In this document: piece by piece, positions 1 to 62,900 of the stretch
Layout of the letters: every line of letters starts with the position of its first letter
Numbering within the stretch: the stretch's first letter is position 1
NCBI GenBank assembly: GCA_000004985.1
Contig: GG738894.1
Source of the DNA: Naegleria gruberi
Taxonomy: Eukaryota
Direction: 5' to 3' (one strand)
Length of the DNA stretch: 64,000 bases
The notes under the pieces: generated by a model
The model's database searches: none
Told to the model about the DNA's origin: nothing
The model's input: the letters and a program-made list of their open reading frames with translations, nothing else
Made by a program: the position numbers and the translations under genes

Positions 1-290
1 CAAACCCAAACCCAAACCCAAACCCAAACCCAAACCCAAACCCAAACCCAAACCCAAACCCAAACCCAAACCCAAACCCAAACCCAAACCCAAACCCAAA
101 CCCAAACCCAAACCCAAACCCAAACCCAAACCCAAACCCAAACCCAAACCCAAACCCAAACCCAAACCCAAACCCAAACCCAAACCCAAACCCAAACCCA
201 AACCCAAACCCAAACCCAAACCCAAACCCAAACCCAAACCCAAACCCAAACCCAAACCCAAACCCAAACCCAAACCCAAACCCAAACCCA
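1..290. repeat. Telomeric repeat array, about 48 tandem copies of CCCAAA (G-strand TTTGGG), at the start of the window. It marks the physical chromosome end.
   Basis: Perfect 6-nt periodicity caaacc from position 1 to 290, ending abruptly at cgactaaggt. C-rich strand reads 5'->3' on the top strand, as expected for a left telomere. Confidence 0.9.
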
Positions 291-1094
291 CGACTAAGGT
301 CAGACCCAACATTTTGACTTTTATTCATCTTAATTAATTATCTCAATAAATACTCATTATAAATCAATATATTATATATCAATATACTCCAAATTGAATA
401 TATAATCATATTATAACATAATGTTACATCATTATAATGACTTATATAAGTTAATTTCATATAATAGATTAGACAATTAGAATATCAATGAAAACATTTC
501 AAAATCATTTCAAATCAATATATCATCTTATAAATCATGTCAATAACAAAATATATCAGTTTCAAATACTTTGGTATCATTTCAAGAAATTTACTATTCA
601 ACTTGTCAACTGACCTATACTAACATTGAAGATAGAAATCTATACCACTTCAATTCACTTCCAATACATATATACATGATAATTAAATACATTAATATCA
701 TTTTGACATTCATCCATATCATACATGGTACATGGCTGATCCACTTGATACCTATAGGGATGTGACAATGACATCCACTATACAGATCATCATGAAACTG
801 GTACAGGACCTTACTAATGGTGAATAAACACTACTGTATCAGTTTCATGACAATTTGAAATCATTCAACATGTCAGGAGTGTAATCATGGGAATTATAAA
901 TGTCAAGATAATCAAATCATATTAATTTTAAAATCTTTCAATTACAATATCATATATAGATCAATTAATCATGGTATATCAATAATTGGTATTGAATTTC
1001 ATATCAATTCATTCAAACCTTAATGACCTATCCTTAGATGACCAACTCAATTTTAAACTATCATGAATCATATAACTATTGATATCATTGTGTT
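291..1094. other. Subtelomeric, extremely AT-rich non-coding region
   Basis: No convincing ORF. Only one low-complexity 64-aa ORF. Very low GC; lies between the telomere array and the assembly gap. Confidence 0.5.
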
Positions 1095-3284
1095 NNNNNN
1101 NNNNNNNNNNNNNNNNNNNNNNNNNNNNNNNNNNNNNNNNNNNNNNNNNNNNNNNNNNNNNNNNNNNNNNNNNNNNNNNNNNNNNNNNNNNNNNNNNNNN
1201 NNNNNNNNNNNNNNNNNNNNNNNNNNNNNNNNNNNNNNNNNNNNNNNNNNNNNNNNNNNNNNNNNNNNNNNNNNNNNNNNNNNNNNNNNNNNNNNNNNNN
1301 NNNNNNNNNNNNNNNNNNNNNNNNNNNNNNNNNNNNNNNNNNNNNNNNNNNNNNNNNNNNNNNNNNNNNNNNNNNNNNNNNNNNNNNNNNNNNNNNNNNN
1401 NNNNNNNNNNNNNNNNNNNNNNNNNNNNNNNNNNNNNNNNNNNNNNNNNNNNNNNNNNNNNNNNNNNNNNNNNNNNNNNNNNNNNNNNNNNNNNNNNNNN
1501 NNNNNNNNNNNNNNNNNNNNNNNNNNNNNNNNNNNNNNNNNNNNNNNNNNNNNNNNNNNNNNNNNNNNNNNNNNNNNNNNNNNNNNNNNNNNNNNNNNNN
1601 NNNNNNNNNNNNNNNNNNNNNNNNNNNNNNNNNNNNNNNNNNNNNNNNNNNNNNNNNNNNNNNNNNNNNNNNNNNNNNNNNNNNNNNNNNNNNNNNNNNN
1701 NNNNNNNNNNNNNNNNNNNNNNNNNNNNNNNNNNNNNNNNNNNNNNNNNNNNNNNNNNNNNNNNNNNNNNNNNNNNNNNNNNNNNNNNNNNNNNNNNNNN
1801 NNNNNNNNNNNNNNNNNNNNNNNNNNNNNNNNNNNNNNNNNNNNNNNNNNNNNNNNNNNNNNNNNNNNNNNNNNNNNNNNNNNNNNNNNNNNNNNNNNNN
1901 NNNNNNNNNNNNNNNNNNNNNNNNNNNNNNNNNNNNNNNNNNNNNNNNNNNNNNNNNNNNNNNNNNNNNNNNNNNNNNNNNNNNNNNNNNNNNNNNNNNN
2001 NNNNNNNNNNNNNNNNNNNNNNNNNNNNNNNNNNNNNNNNNNNNNNNNNNNNNNNNNNNNNNNNNNNNNNNNNNNNNNNNNNNNNNNNNNNNNNNNNNNN
2101 NNNNNNNNNNNNNNNNNNNNNNNNNNNNNNNNNNNNNNNNNNNNNNNNNNNNNNNNNNNNNNNNNNNNNNNNNNNNNNNNNNNNNNNNNNNNNNNNNNNN
2201 NNNNNNNNNNNNNNNNNNNNNNNNNNNNNNNNNNNNNNNNNNNNNNNNNNNNNNNNNNNNNNNNNNNNNNNNNNNNNNNNNNNNNNNNNNNNNNNNNNNN
2301 NNNNNNNNNNNNNNNNNNNNNNNNNNNNNNNNNNNNNNNNNNNNNNNNNNNNNNNNNNNNNNNNNNNNNNNNNNNNNNNNNNNNNNNNNNNNNNNNNNNN
2401 NNNNNNNNNNNNNNNNNNNNNNNNNNNNNNNNNNNNNNNNNNNNNNNNNNNNNNNNNNNNNNNNNNNNNNNNNNNNNNNNNNNNNNNNNNNNNNNNNNNN
2501 NNNNNNNNNNNNNNNNNNNNNNNNNNNNNNNNNNNNNNNNNNNNNNNNNNNNNNNNNNNNNNNNNNNNNNNNNNNNNNNNNNNNNNNNNNNNNNNNNNNN
2601 NNNNNNNNNNNNNNNNNNNNNNNNNNNNNNNNNNNNNNNNNNNNNNNNNNNNNNNNNNNNNNNNNNNNNNNNNNNNNNNNNNNNNNNNNNNNNNNNNNNN
2701 NNNNNNNNNNNNNNNNNNNNNNNNNNNNNNNNNNNNNNNNNNNNNNNNNNNNNNNNNNNNNNNNNNNNNNNNNNNNNNNNNNNNNNNNNNNNNNNNNNNN
2801 NNNNNNNNNNNNNNNNNNNNNNNNNNNNNNNNNNNNNNNNNNNNNNNNNNNNNNNNNNNNNNNNNNNNNNNNNNNNNNNNNNNNNNNNNNNNNNNNNNNN
2901 NNNNNNNNNNNNNNNNNNNNNNNNNNNNNNNNNNNNNNNNNNNNNNNNNNNNNNNNNNNNNNNNNNNNNNNNNNNNNNNNNNNNNNNNNNNNNNNNNNNN
3001 NNNNNNNNNNNNNNNNNNNNNNNNNNNNNNNNNNNNNNNNNNNNNNNNNNNNNNNNNNNNNNNNNNNNNNNNNNNNNNNNNNNNNNNNNNNNNNNNNNNN
3101 NNNNNNNNNNNNNNNNNNNNNNNNNNNNNNNNNNNNNNNNNNNNNNNNNNNNNNNNNNNNNNNNNNNNNNNNNNNNNNNNNNNNNNNNNNNNNNNNNNNN
3201 NNNNNNNNNNNNNNNNNNNNNNNNNNNNNNNNNNNNNNNNNNNNNNNNNNNNNNNNNNNNNNNNNNNNNNNNNNNNNNNNNNNN
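1095..3284. other. Assembly gap, a run of 2,190 N
   Basis: Continuous n characters. All ORFs in the track spanning this interval are artefacts of N translated as X. Confidence 0.99.
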
Positions 3285-4602
3285 CATTAGCAAAATAAAC
3301 TTCACCATTTGCTTCAGTGATACAACTAATAATAGTACCTAAACTTGAATTATAAGCAATAGTTCCATCAGTTAAAATTGAAAATTCTGGAAGAGTTACT
3401 CCAGTTCCAGCTTTAAATGTTGCATTTCCATTTGTTTTGTTCAATTCGAATAGCATCATATCATGAGTTGCAAAATAGTTGGTGGAAAGGAATTGAGGAG
3501 AAATGTTGAGAGAAGTTGCTAGCGCAGTTTCTTGACCAAGTGGAATACCAGCAAAATTTTTCGTGTTACAATTTCCAGCTAGGATTTTCCTTTCACCTTC
3601 TTTCGTATAATTATAAACAACCTTTGTCGATTCAGAAACAATCAAATTATCATACATATCCAATAGAACACTATATGGCTTTACCAAACCAGAAACTAGA
3701 ACGCTCTTTGTAAAGGTAGTATCAAGACTAATGTTCAAACTAATCACATTTCCACCATTTTGCTCCACAACATAAACCAAATCTCCTTTTCTAAACATAT
3801 TTCCAGGAAAATTTAAACCTATTTCCTCATGTTTCAATAAAATTGAATTTTCATTTGAAATGTCATATTTAGAAACCTTTCCCGTAGATCCTTGTGAAAT
3901 TATTAAATATTTTCCAGTGGATAGAATTGAATTTGGTCCTCCAAGAATTATTATTGTTGTTGTAATTCTAGTTTGTAAATTAAATTGTCGTATGGCATTG
4001 TTGCTATTGTCAGTAATAAACATTAAATTGTCATCATCTGACAAGGCAACTGACAGAGTTGACGCAAAGAGAACAGAATATGGATCGGTGCTATCATTAT
4101 ATCCAGATGAACCACATTTACCAACAATAGTTGAAATGTTGCCAGTTGTCAAATCAACTCCACGAACACAATTACTAGAACTGACAAAATATAACCAAGT
4201 TTCATTCTTATTAAGTACCATTCCTGTTGGTGCATTCAATTTAGCAGATGTAGCAACAATATTGTTTCCATCATCTCCAGATGCATAACTTCCAGCAAAG
4301 ACAGAGATTACTCCAGTGTTTCCATCAACTTTTCGAATAACATGGTATGTACTATCAGACATGTAGACGGTTCCATCTTTTGCTTGTACAGTATGGGCAA
4401 TTCTAGCAAGACATGACATGCTTGCTGGAAATCCATCACCAAACTGTCTGGTGTATGCTAATGTAATTGGTGAGGTTACACCAGCAAATATGGACACATC
4501 ATATTTAACATCAGATGATGACGCACAAATTAGAGTTGTGTGGAAACTCAGCCAAGTGGTGGCCACAAGGAGAAAACTAATTAGAAGAGCGGATAATGAC
4601 AT
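3285..4602 (-). CDS. Secreted NHL-repeat (six-bladed beta-propeller) protein. The N-terminal about 440 aa are present and the C-terminus is lost in the gap.
   Basis: ATG at 4602..4600 (MSLSALLISFLLVATTWLS, signal-peptide-like) preceded by an A-run. Repeated G/N/D-rich blocks with 'Y.D..NH.IRK.D'-like units typical of NHL repeats. ORF runs uninterrupted into the N gap. Confidence 0.55.
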
Positions 4603-4859
4603 TTTTTTTTGAAGACTAAGAAAGTAATTGTGTGGCAAAGAATTTAGGAGTGTTTCCACCAATTCCTGGTGGTTCTAACATGAGAACAAACCATAGTAAC
4701 TGTTTCCATGGATTGATGGAAAAGAACATGTGTGGTACTTGGTTTCTTTTAGAAGTGTCAAAACTAATGTGATTTGGAAAGTATTAATCAAGCCAATAAC
4801 AATCTTCCAAATTTTATGAAGAGTTTGACAAATTGATTGAATATTAATTTTTGATTAGT

Positions 4860-7800
4860 TTACTTTATTCTGACTTTCTCTTTGATTTGATTGAGTGTAT
4901 CAACCCATTCATCACGTTCTTCCTTAGTTTGAGCAGCTAAAAAGTAATCACGAGTTGGAATTTCAATTCTAAATACGAAACGTTTCTTACTTGATCTTTC
5001 AGGAATCATTTCAATATTCAAAACCTGTCTCATATCAATACATCCTAATTGCTTATCGAATTTATCTGCTTCATCATTGAAATAATAAACATAAAATCCT
5101 TCAATTCTAAAGTAACGCTTCTTATACATGTTTAGTTTAGGACCTTTCTTTTCCAAATAACCATGCTTGTCAGCATTCATTGAAGATGGTTTGACACCAA
5201 ACTTCTTTTCCAAAATGTTAGGTCTTGGTGAACGAACATAAACTTCTTCCTCTTGTGTAATTACTGATTTTCTATCAACAAATGGTTGAGAAACATCAAA
5301 GGTTGAAAGTTGATTGGAAAGTGTTGTCAAATGTTTCTTATTGACAGTTACTGACATACGTTGTGAAAGTTTTTCCTTTTCATGTTGAGAGTTAGATCTA
5401 GATGTTTGAGCGTCCATCTTTTTAGGTTGAATAACATCACCTCCTTTTTTAGGTTGTTGGAATGATTCAATCTTTACGCCTGTATACTTTTTGAGGAATT
5501 TAATTTCACGTTCCAATGTTTCTACCTTTTCACGTTCTTGTAATAGGAGAATTGTATTCGATTCTTGAGATTGTTGGAGTGTAGAGAGAGTCTTTTTACG
5601 ATAGGCCTTAATCTTCTTATATTTTTGATAGACTTCATCCTTTTCTTGTTCCAATTTCTTCATTTGTTCCTTCAAGTTTTCTTCAGCATCTTTGAGAGTG
5701 GTAATTTCCTTTCTGAGTTGTTCAACTTGTTCCATATCGGTGGATTGCTTCTTGCTAATTTCTTCCTTTAACTTTTTGAGTTCAGTTTCAAGATTTTGAA
5801 TTTGCTCCTTGTGCATCTTTTCAGTTTCTTGAGCTTTCATCTTGGAAATTTCCATTTCTGTATTCTTTTTACGAGCAGTATTGAGTTTGACAGTTAAATC
5901 ATCAATAGTTTCTTTGAGTTTTTGACTATTGCCCTTATCTTCGAATGCAGATCTTAGTGAAGCGGTTGTGGAAGAGTTGGCACTTATGGATAATCTGGAA
6001 GATTTTTCTACAGCAGTTTGATATTGATTGAACAATTGTTGATATTCGTAAATCTTATCGTCAAGACTCTTCAAAGCAATTTCAGCTGCTTTTTCTCTTG
6101 CCTTTAAGTTTTCTCTCTTGGCCAAATTGAGTTGTTCCATCAACAGTTTGTTCTTGCTCTTCATCTTTTCGATTAATTGATGAGATGGATCATCAGAAGA
6201 AAGTTGTGAAATTTCCTTAGCATTATGATTATCTTCATCTTCAACAAGTTTCTTTTCAATTTGAGTTAGTTTTTCACTAATCTCTTCGTACATCTTTTTG
6301 TAATCTTCGCATTGAATCTTCAACACATTGACAGTTTCAGCATCAATTTCCATCTTTTTCACAGATAAACTAGATTCCAATCCAGAGCTATTAGATTGTG
6401 TGACTGAGAAACGTGACGAAAGAACTGAATTGGTTGGCTTGGTGGTAGATGCGGAAGTTTCTAACTTTTTCACAGCTTCTTTCAATTCATTGATTTCCTT
6501 AGTCTTTTGAGCAAGCTTTTCATTCAATTCTTCCTTTGTAGAATCAGATTGAATGAGTTTTTCCTTCAATTCTTGAATTTCTGCATGAGTTTTTTGTAAA
6601 CTCTCATCGTGGCGAATCTTTTCCTGTTCTAAACTTTCCTTCAATTCGGTAACTTGTCTAAACTTCTTTTCCAAATCTTCAAGTGATGTTTCAGCAGTGC
6701 TTGCTTGTTTCTTATATTGAACTACAGCTTCGTGTTCCTTCTTTAAATTGGCTTCCAATTCGGTGACTTTAGTTTTCAACGAACTCACTTGTTCATTCAA
6801 TTCATGTTTCTCAGTGAGGACCTTCTTGAAAAGAGTATCAGAAATTTCTGCCTTTTCTTCATTAACAGGGGATGGTGGAGAAGAAGGTGTCATTGGTGAT
6901 TCATCAACTGGTGTTGATGGCTCCTTCTTGACTTCGAAAGAAGAGACAGGTGTTGATGGCAGTTGTTGCCTTTGTGGAACAGGTGGTGCTTGTTCAGGTT
7001 TTACATTACTACTACTAATTGCTGTTGATGAAGAAGTTGATGGTTGACTTATTGGGGTAATTTCGGCAACACCCTCCAAACTGACATAATTGATAGAAAC
7101 CTCACTTGACATTTCACACAGTAAATTGCCCAAATTCAAATTTGGAACTGTTTGCCTTTCAACAAGGGCAGGTAATGATGATTGTGACAAGGTAATAAAT
7201 CCGAAACTTGCTGTATTGATGAAAATTCGCGAGAATAACAGACAACGAAGAGTTGTTTCGAAATAATCAAACTCATCTGATTCACTGTGAATTGCTTCTG
7301 TTACTTGTTGGAAAGTTCTGAATCCTGTTGGACGTGTTTGTTTGTGTGGATCAGTTGATGATTCAGCATCAATATCAATAATGGTCAATCGACCTTCTTT
7401 GGTGAGTTTAGTATTGGTATCACTTTGAAGAAGTTTAATTTCAAAGAAAAGTGAACTATGTTCTATAATATTTCAATGAATCATTCAAGTTGAAAAGAAT
7501 AATGAATAGTTTAAATTGTTTTCTAATATAAATTTCCAATAAAAAAACAAACCTTTTGATCTCTTTTCTAAAGATTTTGAAATAAATTGGAATAGTTCAA
7601 CTTCACTCGTCACAAATTCTTCATGTAATCCAGCAATTTCAACACTATTCGTTTCATCATTGACCAATACTTCCAAATGTGCAGAATTGACATCATTTGC
7701 CAAATCATGATCAGCCAGTAAATCAGTCATGAGTGCTTCACCATTATCCAAACCACAAATTTCAAAACTTGTCATGGAAACTGAAAATTCAATTTCAGGT

Positions 7801-8551
7801 GGCGAATTATTAACAATAAAATCAAAAATTGCTCTCACAACTCTTGAAGCAAAACCTAAATTTGGTGTTGAAGCAACTGCATTTTTACCAAACAGAGTGA
7901 ATGTTTTACCTGTTTGTTCAGCACCAAATGCAAATATTGTGCAATTAATGCCATCTGTCAATCGTTGCACTATCTCAGTTCCGTATTGTGTTGAATTGTA
8001 AACTTCTTCTTGTGTTGCTGTTGCTTTTAAAAATTTATCAAACATGTATTCTGGAGGTTCAGTGGATCCATTCTAATCAATAATATTCGAAAGGTTCAAT
8101 TTATACGAATGGTTCGTTTTTAGTTTTTGAAAATGCCATAAAAATAAATATGGAAGTTGGTGATCACACCATGACACACGACAATCATTTGATATTGTGT
8201 TGTGAATAAAAATTTCGTTACTTTCGAATACTACGTACCTTGATCAGAAAATTCTTTCCGTTCTATTGTTGTTGAAGAAGTTTTTAAATGATGATAAAGT
8301 TGTTGTCATGATGATTCCAGTATGTAAAGTTGAAACGTTAGTGTGAGATAGAGTAGTAGTTATTATCGCAGTAATATTTATCAGATATTCCATATAAACG
8401 AAACCATTCGAATAATAAAAAATAAACGTACTTTATGAAAGGCTACACAACTTTTTGGTTTATCCTCTCCTGCCATACTTTCTGCATCAGACTTGAGGAA
8501 AGGTCTGAAACGAGGACAAACTTTCACTTGAACGTGTTCTGCTTTGGACAT
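4860..8551 (-). CDS. Kinesin-like protein with N-terminal motor, long coiled-coil stalk and C-terminal PH domain. It is multi-exon.
   Basis: Exon 1 from ATG 8551: MSKAEHVQVKVCPRFRP...AFHK, then GTACGT intron of about 370 nt. Exon 2 (about 8069-7559) has FDKFL..TQEEVY and the divergent P-loop AFGAEQTGKTFTLFG. A 96-nt intron (GTTTGT..ATAG, about 7558-7463) precedes the exon with EHSSLFFEIKL...LTIIDIDAESS (SSRSH/DLAGSE equivalents). About 550 aa of heptad-rich K/E/L sequence follows. The C-terminal 100 aa, GYLEKKG...KKRYF...W, match a PH fold. Stop at 4860. Confidence 0.6.
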
Positions 8552-13506: not shown

Positions 13507-15699
13507 ATGCATGAAGCACGTCGTCTCTCCATTCTTCTCAACCACTTGAATATCCATGTGGATCAAGAACAACAACAAAATTCCCTATCATCAAATTCAT
13601 GTTCATCATCTTCATCATCAAAACAACAACAAATAATTTATAATATTCCTTCCAATGCTTCTGATTTGAACTTTAAAGGGGATGATCATCATTTGGAATT
13701 ACCTGCTGATGAATCCCTGCATAGATATCATTTGATGCTCAAGAGAAAGGATCAACCACTCTACGATCAACTTCCAACCAAATCACTTTCATCATTGAAG
13801 GCTTTCCATTCCAAAGATTGTAAATCACTTGCTTCACGTCTTTTACAAACAGCTGAAAAGACTATTTTCGATAAGGGTTACACTGCAGCTCGTGAAGCTG
13901 TTTGGAAGATTTTAAATCAAGAAACTTTTACTATTGATAATGAATGGCAAGATCAACAACTCAGACTTCAAATTGTTTCACAATTCCGTGAATTCATCAA
14001 GAATAAGCCAATTACAACACAAGTTATGAATGAAAATATCTTCTTCTTTTTGGGAGCACTTGAATCTGCAATTCAATATGATACATCATTCACTGCTGCT
14101 CTTGTTGTTAGTATGCAATTATTTGGTACTTGTATTTACAAGCTAGGAACTGGAAGACATCAATACTTGTTGAATGATTTGAATTCTGGTCGTGATATTG
14201 GAAGTTTTTGCATGACTGAACTTACTCATGGTTCAAATACTAGAGCCATTGAAACAACAGCTCATTACGATCATGACAAGAAGGAATTCATCATCAACTC
14301 ACCAAGTGAATCATCTTACAAATATTGGATTGGTAATACTGCCTTCTTTGGAACCAAGACTTGTGTATTTGCTCAATTATATGTCAATAATGAAAATAAG
14401 GGTGTACATGTCTTTGTTGTTCCAATCAGAGATCAAGATACACTCGACATGTATCCAGGTATTACCATTAAGGATATTGGATCAAAGAATGGATGGCGTG
14501 GTGTTGCTAATGGTTGTCTTCGTTTTGATCATGTAAGAATTCCAGCTAGTGCCCTATTAAACAAGTATGGCGACATTGATACAAGTGGTAATTATACCAG
14601 TCAAATTAAGGATGAAAATGTAAGATTCGCCCTAACTTTGGCAGCATTGAGCATGGGAAGATTGCTCTATATTGCTGGTCCAACTTTTGCTTTGAGAGCT
14701 GGTTTGACCACAGCCATCAGATATGCTCACCAAAGAAGACAATTTGGTGGAAAGGATGGAAAGGAAAATTTAATTTGGGAATATCCAACTCATTTGAATA
14801 TGATGTTACCAATGGTTGCCATTTCACATGCTTTCCACTCTGGAATGGTTACTTTGGCTCATGAATGGGCAAGTGTCAACAATTCTAATATGGAAGATTT
14901 CCATGCTGTAGTTTCAGGTATTAAGGCCTACGTTTGTGAATATGTCACTCCTGCATTGAGAGAGTTGAGAGTTGCTTGTGGTGGTCACGGATACAGTTCA
15001 AACAATAGAATCAACATTCTCATGAATGATATGGATGTTTTCAATACTGCTGAAGGTGATGCCACTGTTTTGTATATTCAAGTTGCTAAATTCCTTCTTG
15101 GAAAGGCTTCAAAGAAGGCCAATAATAATCCAGTCCTCAAACTTGTTTTGAGTGCTGAACCAAAGGCTGCTCAAAATGTAAACTTATTGACATTTGAAAA
15201 TCAAGCAAAGGCATTGGCTTTCAGAGTCAAATCCTTATTGGAAAAGTGTTCCACCTCCATTGCTAAACACATGAAGGATAAGAAGGATGCCCAAACTGCA
15301 TTCAACTTGGCTCTTGTTGATGTAATTGAACTTGCAAGAAGTTACATTGAATTGGAAATGTTATTCAGACTCGACAAGTCTCTCATTAAGAATGCTGCTG
15401 ATGAACAAGTTAAGCAAGTTTTCAAGACCTTGTCTGATATTTATGCTCTCACAATCATCAAGCAAAACCTTTCCTATTATTTAGTTTATCAATATTTTGA
15501 TATTGACACATCCAAGAAGGTTATGGATGACATTCTTCCACATCTTTACCAAACAGTTAATCCAGACATTTTGGAAATTGTTGATTCCTTCAATATTCCA
15601 GATTCATTGTTGAGAGCACCATTAGGTTTGAGTAATAACCAAAGCTATGTCAAGAGAACACTCCAAAGCATTGGTTTCAAAGCTCCAACCATTGAATAA
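13507..15699 (+). CDS. Acyl-CoA oxidase (peroxisomal-type, ACOX family) with an N-terminal PTS2-like nonapeptide. Intronless, 730 aa.
   Basis: Full-length ACOX-like ORF including the GGHGYS motif. Residues 5-13, RLSILLNHL, fit the PTS2 consensus R-[LVIQ]-x-x-[LVIH]-[LSGA]-x-[HQ]-[LA]. No C-terminal PTS1 (ends -PTIE). Strong codon bias (AAG, TTG, AGA, GGT, GCT, CCA) suggests high expression. Confidence 0.85.
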   Translation: MHEARRLSILLNHLNIHVDQEQQQNSLSSNSCSSSSSSKQQQIIYNIPSNASDLNFKGDDHHLELPADESLHRYHLMLKRKDQPLYDQLPTKSLSSLKAFHSKDCKSLASRLLQTAEKTIFDKGYTAAREAVWKILNQETFTIDNEWQDQQLRLQIVSQFREFIKNKPITTQVMNENIFFFLGALESAIQYDTSFTAALVVSMQLFGTCIYKLGTGRHQYLLNDLNSGRDIGSFCMTELTHGSNTRAIETTAHYDHDKKEFIINSPSESSYKYWIGNTAFFGTKTCVFAQLYVNNENKGVHVFVVPIRDQDTLDMYPGITIKDIGSKNGWRGVANGCLRFDHVRIPASALLNKYGDIDTSGNYTSQIKDENVRFALTLAALSMGRLLYIAGPTFALRAGLTTAIRYAHQRRQFGGKDGKENLIWEYPTHLNMMLPMVAISHAFHSGMVTLAHEWASVNNSNMEDFHAVVSGIKAYVCEYVTPALRELRVACGGHGYSSNNRINILMNDMDVFNTAEGDATVLYIQVAKFLLGKASKKANNNPVLKLVLSAEPKAAQNVNLLTFENQAKALAFRVKSLLEKCSTSIAKHMKDKKDAQTAFNLALVDVIELARSYIELEMLFRLDKSLIKNAADEQVKQVFKTLSDIYALTIIKQNLSYYLVYQYFDIDTSKKVMDDILPHLYQTVNPDILEIVDSFNIPDSLLRAPLGLSNNQSYVKRTLQSIGFKAPTIE

Positions 15700-21728: not shown

Positions 21729-22472
21729 ATGATTCGACAACTTCAGGTAGCTTTCGGCTTGTTTATTTGCTGTGCATTTCTTCTGCATGTTGCACTGTGC
21801 ATTCCACCTGGACAAGTTGTGAACATTAACAATTGGTATCTTACCCTTCCAATAGGAAGCTATAAGAATCCACAAAACATCTACCAGCCGAATCTAAACA
21901 CATTCGAAAGTGATCCGTATTTTGTTACTGGAAACGATGGAAACAGCATTAGATTTAGAGTTCCAATCCATAAACAAACTGTTACAACATCTGGAAGTAG
22001 TTATCCAAGAACTGAGTTGAGAGAAATGGATTCGTCTAATCCTTCCAAGACGAAAGTTGCTTGGACGAATTCAGATAAAGGAGTTCATACCATGATTATT
22101 GATCAGGCAATCACTCACCTCCCAATCAAGAGAAATCGACTTGCGGCAGGTCAAATCCACGATGACAATGAATTTGTCATTATTATTCAATTGACAGGAA
22201 GTCAACTTTTTGTAAAAACAAATAAGAATGCAAATGCCAAAGTTTTAGATAGTAACTATCAATTAGGCACTAGATTCCTCTTGAAAATCGAAGGATTTGG
22301 TGGAATTACCAATATTTATTATAATGACATGACGAAAGCTGCCTATTCCTATGAATATTCGTATAAGAATGCCTATTTCAAAGCAGGATGTTATTCGCAA
22401 TCAAATTGTGATTATGAACAAGAATTGTGTACAGACACTTCGTTTGTTGAGATTGTTTATGGAAATATTTAA
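21729..22472 (+). CDS. Secreted polysaccharide-lyase family 7 (alginate lyase 2-like) protein
   Basis: Signal peptide, then the three PL7 signature blocks in order: YPRTELREM (R-S/T-E-L-R-E), QIHDD (QIH) and YFKAGCYSQ (YFKAG-V/I-Y-N/S-Q). The 247-aa size fits a single jelly-roll PL7 catalytic module. Confidence 0.6.
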   Translation: MIRQLQVAFGLFICCAFLLHVALCIPPGQVVNINNWYLTLPIGSYKNPQNIYQPNLNTFESDPYFVTGNDGNSIRFRVPIHKQTVTTSGSSYPRTELREMDSSNPSKTKVAWTNSDKGVHTMIIDQAITHLPIKRNRLAAGQIHDDNEFVIIIQLTGSQLFVKTNKNANAKVLDSNYQLGTRFLLKIEGFGGITNIYYNDMTKAAYSYEYSYKNAYFKAGCYSQSNCDYEQELCTDTSFVEIVYGNI

Positions 22473-28015: not shown

Positions 28016-30078
28016 TTGCACAATATAGAGATGAAGTATCAAAGAAACAAGTTACTGTCATTATGTTTATTGGCCATTGTTGGATTAATGTTCATGATAG
28101 GAGGATTGAATGGACAGAAGGATTGTCCCTCCTATCGTTCCAAACACTACTTTCCAAGGATGAGATATGAAAATGATGGCACCACCACTCGATCGGAATA
28201 TTTGACAATGAGGGATGGTGTAAAGATTGCCTGTGATTTATATTTGCCATACAGGGCTGTTAATGAAAATCACAGATTGCCAACATTGTTGCACGTGACC
28301 AGATATTACAGATCTTACAAGGTGAATTGGCCATTTAATTATCTTGTTGGAGATAAGATTAGTATTAATGGAATTCCATTCCCAAAATTCTTGGCTCGTG
28401 GATATGCCATTGTTAGTTGCGATACTAGGTATGTTTTACATATAATATAACTTATTAACATAGTATCAAAAGAGGTTCTGGTGTTAGTTTCGGAAAGAGA
28501 TTATACGATTTCCACAGAGATGAAGTTCAAGATTTCAAGGAAGTTCTCGATTGGATTACCAAACAAAAGTTCAGTAATGGAAAGATTGTTTCTACTGGTA
28601 TTTCGTATGATGGCATGGTCACTGATTTCTTGACCTCTTTGAATCATCCAGCTTTGGTTGCTGTTTCTTCAATTTCAGGACCATTCGATATCTATAGGGA
28701 TACAATCTATCCTGGTGGTATTTATCAAAAGTCATTTATTGATTATTATTTGAAATTTACACAAACTGTCGAGTCTGGAGAGATGATTACTAGATCTGAT
28801 TTGTGTGCTGGTTGTGCTCCAGAAACACTCAAGGAAAAGATTATGGACAAGTTGGCTAAACTTCTCCTCGGTGGTGTTAACCCTGTGGATTCCAATGATT
28901 TGGAAACTATGAGAAAAGCCATTGAATCACACAAGGACTCTACTGACATGTTGGATGTTGTTCATCATCTTGAAAAAGGTATCAATAAGATTGTTACCAC
29001 AGACAAGTTCACCTATGAAATGGAAAGAGATGGACCAATGAGAGTCATTGCTGATAATAAGAAGAGAATTCCAATATTAGTATTTGGTGGCTATTATGAA
29101 AGTATGGTTTTGAATAGTGTTGTAAAAAGATTCTACTCTTTATATCACAAGGACAGCAGATTGATTATGGGACCTTACAATCACGGTCTCAAGGTAATCA
29201 ACTCACCTTACTCAGAAACCACCACACCATGTTTTGATGCCTTTGAGGAAATTATGAGATTCTTTGATCATCATTTAGGATTGGAGGAAGATCTTGGACT
29301 CGAAAATGAAAAACAAGTTCACTACTATTCTATTGGATCTGAAAAGTGGTTCTCAGTTGACAGTTGGCCACCAAAAGCTGAAGAGAAGGTTTTACATTTG
29401 AGTAATGCTGGAGCCCTCGTATCCGAGAAGACTGAATTGAATCATGTTTTAAAGCTTAATATGGAGGAAGAAACACTCATTGACTGTAAGTGGAATATGT
29501 TAACTTCACTCTTCCAAAAAGCTACCAAATACTCTGCAACCTTGTCCTCTCCTCAATTCTCCAATGGAAAGCTCAATTATATCTCACAACCATTGAGTGA
29601 AGATTTGGAAATTACTGGTTATCCTCACCTCACTGTTGAATTATCTGCCAACAATCGTGATGGATTGATTTTTGCCTATTTGCAAGAAGTTGACACCAAG
29701 GGAACTGTTAACTTTGTCATGGATACTCAATTGAGACTCGTCCATCGTAAATTGAATTTACACAGAAATACCAGTGGACTCATTGATGTAGTTCCACATC
29801 ATACCTTCTACGTGGAGGATCGTCAATATTTAGAACCAAACCAAAAGACCACCATTCAATTATACTTCCCAGCTGTTTCCTACACTGTCAAGAAGGGTCA
29901 CTCTCTCAAGCTTTCCCTCTTCTCATTCGATAAGATTAACTTTAAGATTTTTGAGAATGAATCTGATCTTTCCAGTGAGCTCTTCCTTCACAGTGCCTCT
30001 CTCCATCTTCCAATCGTTCACTCTCGTCCAGAATCTTCTTCTTTACATTCTGATAATTCTAATAAGGATGAGCTCTAA
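28016..30078 (+). CDS. CocE/NonD-family (peptidase S15, Xaa-Pro dipeptidyl-peptidase-like) hydrolase, two exons
   Basis: Exon 1 28016-28428, a 44-nt GTATGT...AG intron at 28429-28472, exon 2 to 30078. Splice restores ...CDTRGSGVSFG. GISYDGM nucleophile motif (GxSxG), N-terminal signal/TM anchor, long C-terminal beta-sandwich region as in CocE/NonD. Confidence 0.7.
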
Positions 30079-59971: not shown

Positions 59972-62900
59972 TTAATGCTTGTCACTGGATTTTACCGAAA
60001 GTACAGAAGGACGGGTTGAAGATTTGACAGAGAGTGGAGAGTTTCTGGTATTATTTACATTGTTTGAACTGTTTGTGACTGAGAGCTGTTGTTGGGATTG
60101 TTTGATAGGAGTTGTGTTGACCTGTCTTCCAGTTGTTGTTGATGAGCTTGAACCAGTTGCTGTTGTATTGGATGTGCTTGGAGTACTGGAATACTTTTGA
60201 GAGGTAGTCACAACTTTTCCACTATTAACATTTGTATTGACCTTATTCGTTGCTGTTGGTTGATTAGCAGTTGTAGAACTTGTTGTTGTGGACGTAAGCT
60301 TTGGAACTGTATTGGTTGCAGTTGATTTGTTGGCAGTCTGAGTTGTTGGTTTGACTTCGACTGGTGTGGAGGTAAGTTTTGGAACTGTATTGGTTGCAGT
60401 TGGTTTGTTGGCAGTCTGAGTTGTTGGTTTTACCTCCACTGGTAGTGGTAAAATTTCATTATCTTTCAGAACTGTCTTGGCAGAGGTTGAGGTGAGAATT
60501 TGAGGTTCTTCTCTATTACCACACAATCTATTCTTTCTGCATTTTCCTTTGGCATTGGCACTGATTTCGATACCCCTCTTCTCACTGGTGAAAAGTTTGT
60601 TGAGCATGACGAGAGGGTCCGCATCCGATCCAATATATACATTCGATCCGCTATTGCTAAAAACCTTATTATTTACAATATTTCCGAGTCCTTCCTTTCC
60701 AATCTTGATACCTTCAGCCATGCTATTGTGAATTTGATTATTTTCAATTGTTGGATTTCCACCATCCTTTATAAAAATGTTTGCTTCCAAACTTCCAAAA
60801 ATGTCATTATCAGCAATAGTGCCATGAGCACCTGAATGTATTTGAATTCCAACATGAGGAGAGTCACGAATAGTATTACCAGTAATGGTTGGATCTGCCT
60901 TTTCACAAATTTCCAAAGAAACTCCCTTAAAGGTACACTTTTCGATGGATGCATCACATTTTGATCCCTTCAATTTAACAGTACAATGTGGGAGTTTTCC
61001 AGTTGTTTTGGTATTTGGTTTGTACTCTGAATTGTAAACTATCAAATTTCTAATTTTCGAATATCTGACATTGTCAAAGAGAATGACATCCTCAACATCT
61101 TTTGGTTTGTAAAGAATGGCATGTGATTTTCCTTCCGAAATTCCCTTCAAAAAGACACTTCTGTCAATGAGAATTTGTTCCTTATAAACTCCAGGTCGAA
61201 TATTAATAATTGGTGTTGTGAGTGGTCTGGTTGGTTTGATGATTTTTCTTCCGTCTGATGGCCTCACAATGAAAGGCAAGTTGAATTTTTGCATTAAAAG
61301 TCTCTGCTTATCAACAAGTGAAATGTCAAGATTGGAGAGTGGATTACTCTTGACTGGATTGTTTGTTCCCAACATGACTCCTCCACTCGATCCACAATCT
61401 TCATACTCTCCAATATCTCCCAAATTACCAGTTCTAAAACTACTGGCCTTCTTTAGCGAGCCCGAGTCTGAGAAGGCATTCTTCATGGAACTGGCTGAAA
61501 AGGTTTTTGTCAATGAATGAGATGGTAGTGGCCTCTTTGGTATAATTTTCGTAATATCCATTGGAAGAGCATTGATAGCTGTTTGAATGGATGTATAGTC
61601 TCCCTTTCCATTAATATCTACTGTATATTCGAGTGAGTTTTGGAGAGGAATACTTCTCAATTCGGTCAATATTTGAGAGAAGGTTGGACGTTCGTCTGGA
61701 TCCTGTAAACAACAAGTCGAAACCAATCTAACAAAGCAATCAATAATTGGTGATTCTTGTGCCAATTTTTCAGCATTTTCAATCTTTGGTCTTTGTCCCA
61801 TAATTACCTGTGAAGCTACAGTGAATGGATTTTGAACATCGTGAAATGGAATTAAGTGAGTAATCAACTCGTACATGACCATTCCGAAACTGTAAACGTC
61901 AGCTTTTTCTCCTGAAGATGCTGCAGAACTGAACATTTCCTGTTTTTCAAGTTTCGAATATAATAAGTAAAGTAGTAATATTTGATAATAATTTGTTGCA
62001 TAATTTGAATAATAAATTGATATTAAAAGTCAATGCAAAAATACTTACTGGAGCCATCCATCCAGATGTACCTTTCATACCAGATACTCCTGAATTTCTA
62101 TTTCTCACAGAAGACAATCCAAAATCTGAAATTTTCGAAATCAAATTCTTATCCAACAACACGTTATGACTCTTCAAATCTCTGTGAATGATTGGTTTTG
62201 GTCTCGAGTGCAAATGATGCATTCCTTCGGCAATATCAATGGCAATTTGTAATTTCATTTCATTGCTGAGAATTGGTTGTGATTGGAGGAATTTCTTGTA
62301 CTTGTCTGCTTGTTCATCCTCATCATCCATTGGAGATTCGACAATGGTGAGTCCAGTTCCGAGAAGTTTCTTTGTGGTTGGTGTGATCACTTGTCTATTG
62401 TTTTGTTGATTTGAAGGAGGTTTTAATTTGCCATTCTGTGATGATTCATTGGTTGGTGAGAGTTGAGAAGAGTTTTGTTTCTTGGATTTCATCAGAGGTT
62501 CATAGTCATACTCTGGAAAGGTTGTTTCTAATACTTTATGAAGAGAGAAGGGCAGAAATTCCTATTTTTCAATATTACATTATATATTAATTATATATTA
62601 GAATATTAATATGATGTTGTGTGTTGTTGTTATTAATATTATTCCGAATGATGTTTTCCAATTAATTAAATTAAACATTATAATAACAATTAAATTGTTG
62701 GAAGAAGTTAAACACAAATATAATGGAGAGAAGAGTCATAAGAAGAAGAAGAAATTACACTTAGAAAAGAGAGAAATAATTAAACAACTCACCATAACAA
62801 TATAAACACACTGACTATCATCGGACCAACCAAAAACATTCAAAATATTGGAATGTTGTACTCGTAACATGATGGCAATTTCATTCAAAGTCTCCTTCCA

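Follow-up and report, generated by a model that had tools for sequence, protein, structure and literature searches.

A terminal TTTGGG repeat array at a probable chromosome end of Naegleria gruberi

Here, we describe what is almost certainly one end of a Naegleria gruberi scaffold, represented by a 64,000-nucleotide stretch of DNA (the window), in which bases 1-290 form a perfect array of TTTGGG/CCCAAA hexamers that very probably represents the proximal portion of a canonical telomere, maintained by telomerase, at one N. gruberi chromosome end. We base this reading on the combination of a short, perfect unit with clustered T and G, a position at the extreme end of the sequence, and a G-rich strand that runs towards the terminus. 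The TTTGGG telomere of N. gruberi is real, mechanistically ordinary, and has been known since 2013, when Fulneckova et al. (Genome Biol Evol 5:468; PMC3622300) screened 143 genome assemblies in silico for minisatellites that lie at sequence ends in the right orientation and put forward TTTGGG as the candidate telomere repeat of this species, for which the 2010 genome paper had come without telomere information. The same survey cautioned that candidate repeats identified in silico still need experimental confirmation, and it is on that survey that the occurrence of TTTGGG at other N. gruberi chromosome ends rests, as a candidate assignment (PMC3622300). Our literature search found nothing after the survey on Naegleria telomeres, TERT, telomerase RNA or experimental confirmation of the repeat, and the paper on the N. 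fowleri nanopore assembly does not mention telomeres. The window agrees with the published candidate in organism, in unit, and in type of evidence (terminal, oriented arrays in an assembly), and is one such end; beyond the survey, it provides the anatomy of that end, comprising a 290-nt array, a sharp junction, 804 bp of unique AT-rich sequence, a gap, and a gene within 3 kb.

The array begins at base 1 of the window, which we take to be the scaffold end. Tandem Repeats Finder reported bases 1-290 as a period-6 repeat with 48.3 copies, 100% matches, 0 indels and a score of 580 (unit CAAACC), and a direct check of the 6-nt period found that the perfect CCCAAA register stops exactly at base 290; the unit is thus a short tandem hexamer with a G cluster on one strand, kept at 100% identity throughout, and falls within the 5-8 nt typical of telomerase-type minisatellites (TnAmGo class). 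A perfect hexamer array of 290 nt cannot arise by chance. The junction at 290|291, read from the sequence as ...CCCAAACCCA|CGACTAAGGTCAGACCCAAC..., leads into the first 20 bases of flanking DNA on the + strand (CGACTAAGGTCAGACCCAAC, 291-310), which hold a single degenerate unit (GACCCAAC) at 303-310, just past the array. The C-rich strand lies on the + strand, so that reading from the left end gives the C-strand 5' to 3', and the complementary (TTTGGG)n runs 5' to 3' towards the end of the sequence; with the 5' end of the C-strand at the left end, the G-strand points to the terminus, as it does in known telomerase-type telomeres. Copy number, perfection and orientation together bear out the proposal of the initial annotation that the window opens with a left-end T3G3 telomere of about 48 perfect hexamers. 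Within the window, the repeat is confined to this place: no CCCAAA dimer occurs in bases 297-64000, no 9-mer of any TTTGGG permutation is present on either strand in the rest of the window, and the isolated hexamers that do occur (CCCAAA 18 times, TTTGGG 16 times) appeared ordinary by eye. The annotation had also held that telomerase-added units are normally heterogeneous, which is not generally the case, given the very regular repeats of Tetrahymena, Oxytricha, trypanosomes, plants and vertebrates. Since many telomerases make regular repeats, the perfect uniformity of the array is not suspicious in itself, and consensus smoothing during assembly may also lie behind it.

By analogy with characterised arrays of this class, we infer for the TTTGGG repeats synthesis by telomerase on an RNA template and protection by capping proteins. 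Telomerase (TERT and its RNA) would extend the 3' end of the G-strand by TTTGGG units, copying a template predicted to hold roughly 1.5 copies of CCCAAA and putatively consisting of a 9-11-nt permutation of CCCAAACCCAA, and the C-strand CCCAAA would be filled in by conventional replication. Capping proteins would bind the double-stranded and single-stranded repeats and hide the end from repair, and the G3 runs, spaced by T3, might fold into G-quadruplexes. The window yielded no Rfam match to a telomerase RNA and no template-like 9-mer, as expected for 64 kb of a whole genome, and we know of no telomerase RNA described in discobids outside the kinetoplastids.

The initial annotation had likened the unit to ciliate G-strand variants while pointing out that the downstream genes use the standard code, and the gene content settles the host as a non-ciliate with that code. 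Along all of its 730 aa, the product of the open reading frame (ORF) at 13507-15699 shows 100% identity to an acyl-CoA oxidase-like protein of Naegleria gruberi, a heterolobosean amoeboflagellate (Discoba), with N. lovaniensis (59%), N. fowleri (58%) and Willaertia magna (53%) as the next-best matches, and 74% of bases 3285-64000 is taken up by standard-code ORFs of 150 aa or more. The identity to N. gruberi also overturned a dictyostelid origin, which the hybrid histidine kinase, TKL-like kinase and F-box/LRR genes had at first brought to mind. Ciliates, by comparison, have macronuclear chromosomes and often a reassigned code. The hexamer itself is shared with the ciliate Paramecium. Paramecium telomeres reportedly follow TTGGG(T/G), a pattern said to go back to work by Forney and Blackburn in 1988 and by McCormick-Graham and Romero in 1996, and of the two units synthesised by its telomerase, one is TTTGGG, which makes this hexamer an established telomerase product. 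Paramecium, however, mixes TTTGGG with TTGGGG through template misincorporation, whereas the N. gruberi array is uniform and belongs to a heterolobosean with the standard code. Tetrahymena (TTGGGG) and Oxytricha (TTTTGGGG) have units of the same TnGm class, without the A of TTAGGG and TTTAGGG, in the same terminal position and orientation, but the numbers of T and G differ from those in N. gruberi, the organisms belong to Alveolata rather than Discoba, and their arrays are those of macronuclear chromosomes.

Kinetoplastids are related to Naegleria within Discoba and are among its nearest relatives with characterised telomeres, which in their case are made by telomerase. Their TTAGGG repeat is likewise hexameric and regular and differs from the Naegleria unit at one position (A in place of T). 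In contrast, trypanosome ends carry long regions of subtelomeric repeats and gene families, while the N. gruberi end has only a short unique spacer. By 2013, kinetoplastids were among the few excavates with characterised telomeres (PMC3622300). The earlier suggestion that TTTGGG could serve as a lineage marker fits this literature, in which the unit is given for the heterolobosean N. gruberi (PMC3622300).

Between the array and the first gene lie at most about 3 kb, of which 2.2 kb are gap. Bases 291-1094 comprise 804 bp of unique AT-rich sequence with an excess of C over G (skew 0.28) and a G+C content of 25.2%, compared with 34.2% in bases 3000-64000, and their commonest 6-mers are ATCA-type words. 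The longest stop-free frame in this segment has 72 codons, leaving no convincing ORF, and look-ups of three mini-ORFs from it matched nothing; Rfam and tRNA scans of the window likewise gave no match. Comparison of the segment with the rest of the window and with every locus fetched in the analysis found no significant similarity, only short low-complexity matches. Three short direct repeats in this segment, at spacings of 387-413 bp, had prompted the idea of a degenerate subtelomeric satellite of about 390 bp, which we rejected: a periodicity of about 390 bp was absent from bases 291-1094 by half-versus-half alignment, shuffle-controlled local alignment and an autocorrelation scan, and the best self-alignment in the segment was a 60-nt AT-rich low-complexity match at the wrong offset. 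No subtelomeric repeat block is visible after the array.

After base 1094 comes a run of 2,190 N (1095-3284) that links the 1,094-bp telomeric contig with the rest of the scaffold, where the genes lie; base 1094 therefore marks a contig end inside the scaffold and not a biological boundary. This bears on the earlier description of the region as an almost gene-free AT-rich subtelomere, in which the base composition stands and the lack of genes is overstated, because only 804 bp were sequenced before the gap and a gene enters its far edge. That first recognisable gene, on the - strand at 3285-4662, encodes an NHL-repeat protein, as read from the translation of its ORF. Only its 5' part is present; transcription proceeds towards the telomere, and the 3' part falls within the gap. 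The match to Pfam TEN_NHL is weak (E 3.4e-8), with no individual stretch over threshold, and by eye the N-terminus of the protein has a hydrophobic stretch resembling a signal peptide. Genes this close to the repeats are consistent with the high ORF density across the rest of the window, where the predicted products include a hybrid histidine kinase, an acyl-CoA oxidase, a TKL-like protein kinase, an F-box/LRR protein and a PH-domain protein.

Several of these genes deserve mention in their own right. On the - strand, ORF 7485-8045 encodes an N-terminal fragment of a kinesin motor (Pfam), and ORF 4860-7388, about 96 nt away, encodes a long region that by eye is probably coiled-coil, followed by a C-terminal PH domain; the two ORFs probably belong to a single kinesin-like gene as separate exons. 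An alginate-lyase-family ORF (PF08787, E 1.6e-33) at 21729-22472 and an S15 X-Pro dipeptidyl-peptidase ORF at 28615-30078 belong to families with a mainly bacterial association and are possible horizontal acquisitions in the amoeba. ORF 59972-61936 (- strand) has matches to a right-handed beta-helix region and to the C-terminal portion of a protein-kinase domain, and contains a 78-bp tandem repeat at 60287-60448 (2.1 copies, 91% identity). As to the acyl-CoA oxidase, N. lovaniensis carries two adjacent genes (730 and 722 aa) on PYSW02000062.1 (10001-15161 of the fetched locus L001), where the N. gruberi window has one, and the region is not collinear between the two species, the neighbouring genes being different. 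The orthologues of both N. lovaniensis and Willaertia lie inside contigs with other neighbours and consequently give no information about the telomere.

The reading of the array as a telomere has to be weighed against the possibility that the assembly by chance broke off at an ordinary hexanucleotide microsatellite of the chromosome interior, or at an interstitial telomere-like tract. An exact scan of a metagenome collection for (CCCAAA)6 returned at least 120 stretches and lends this idea some substance, as the arrays are internal only in 91 of the 120 matches listed (median contig G+C content 53%), where they are ordinary microsatellites. In the other 29 of the 120 matches listed, the array reaches a true end of its contig, in 22 with the telomere orientation and in 7 with the opposite one (binomial p = 0.008), and these seven wrongly oriented ends indicate that contigs can break at such arrays for non-telomeric reasons. 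The internal arrays, however, are short among the matches listed, with a median of 46 nt and a maximum of 112 nt, a view limited by short-read assembly, whereas the N. gruberi array extends over 290 nt, is perfect and correctly oriented, and sits at the extreme end. Furthermore, the 2013 survey weighed the position and orientation of repeats across the assembly in naming TTTGGG for N. gruberi (PMC3622300), and we consider an internal or interstitial origin very improbable. Nor do we give much credence to terminal repeats that are real but kept without telomerase, by recombination or rolling-circle copying, which we regard as exceedingly improbable even though the lack of literature hits on Naegleria TERT or telomerase RNA could be read in its favour. 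Telomerase-independent systems usually have long complex units or retroelements; neither follows the array, and a templated telomerase typically produces just such a perfectly regular TnGm unit of 6 nt.

A third alternative accepts the array as a true N. gruberi telomere and questions its place, supposing that the 1,094-bp telomeric contig was mis-scaffolded from another chromosome end, in which case the genes from base 3285 onward would not really be subtelomeric. The join spans all 2,190 N, and an independent assembly also ends beside it. A metagenome contig of 10,107 bp (L124; ENA ERZ929261, contig k127_443439; run ERR1078381, PRJEB11402) matches the window collinearly from 13441 to 3314 at 99.1% identity, with 65 mismatches and 13 gap openings; to judge by its sequence, an N. 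gruberi-like strain is present in the sample of that run. This contig stops at base 3314 of the window, within the NHL-repeat gene and 30 nt short of the gap edge, and two assemblies breaking at the same spot suggests a repeated or polymorphic segment there, of the kind at which scaffolders err. The position of the N. lovaniensis acyl-CoA oxidase orthologue, about 31 kb inside a 107-kb contig and among different neighbours, could also be taken to favour a mis-join, but as the gene neighbourhood differs between the species anyway, that position says little. There is no positive sign of a mis-join, and nothing contradicts the placement at the scaffold end, so that we regard mis-scaffolding as unlikely. 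A mis-join would in any case leave the nature of the array unchanged.

The metagenome scan also lends some independent support to (TTTGGG)n capping the chromosomes of at least one further organism. Thirteen of the 22 telomere-oriented ends listed come from a single small dataset, JAESGV01 (IMG 3300037860; contigs L008, L030, L032, L043, L055, L078, L079, L083, L084, L085, L103, L116 and L121), from which all 13 of 13 ends are correctly oriented. All the junction sequences printed for this dataset differ from one another, three have degenerate units beside the junction, and the capped contigs, with a G+C content of 22-39%, were taken to represent one AT-rich eukaryote. At least one of them (L008) carries a eukaryote-type gene, the C-terminus of a P4-ATPase (flippase). 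On another (L085, 229-3765 and 5668-11497), a Ty3/gypsy-type pol ORF with reverse transcriptase, RNase H and integrase starts 135 bp from the telomeric repeats and is adjoined by two long, intronless PPR-DYW genes of the RNA-editing type, whose best named homologues are from plants at 22-24% identity; PPR-DYW genes are of a type known from Naegleria. Searches with the flippase C-terminus and the PPR-DYW proteins, and tblastn against Naegleria and Willaertia DNA, assigned no taxon to the JAESGV01 organism, which may be another protist with TTTGGG telomeres. A contig from elsewhere in the scan (L065; LUMJ01000369.1) has CCCAAA repeats in telomere orientation over its first 66 nt (bases 1-66), followed by dense ORFs, many with GTG or TTG starts, among them aconitase X, NFACT and a class II tRNA synthetase. 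Its appearance is prokaryotic, perhaps archaeal, and the terminal repeats could stem from a contig that happened to break at a microsatellite, or from another cause.

The 13 TTTGGG-capped ends on differing unique sequence in JAESGV01, together with the PPR-DYW genes on one contig, hint that the TTTGGG telomere may extend beyond a single species to a broader set of AT-rich protists, mostly uncultured and possibly heterolobosean, in which a telomerase RNA would direct its synthesis, a notion we put forward tentatively and consider doubtful at present. For N. gruberi itself, the array marks the reference scaffold as reaching a chromosome end, which has little import beyond annotation. The TTTGGG unit can serve in checks of completeness of Naegleria assemblies, in the search for the telomerase RNA template and in the design of telomere probes. 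In this compact genome, the distance from a telomere to ordinary genes would be no more than about 3 kb if the contig is correctly joined.
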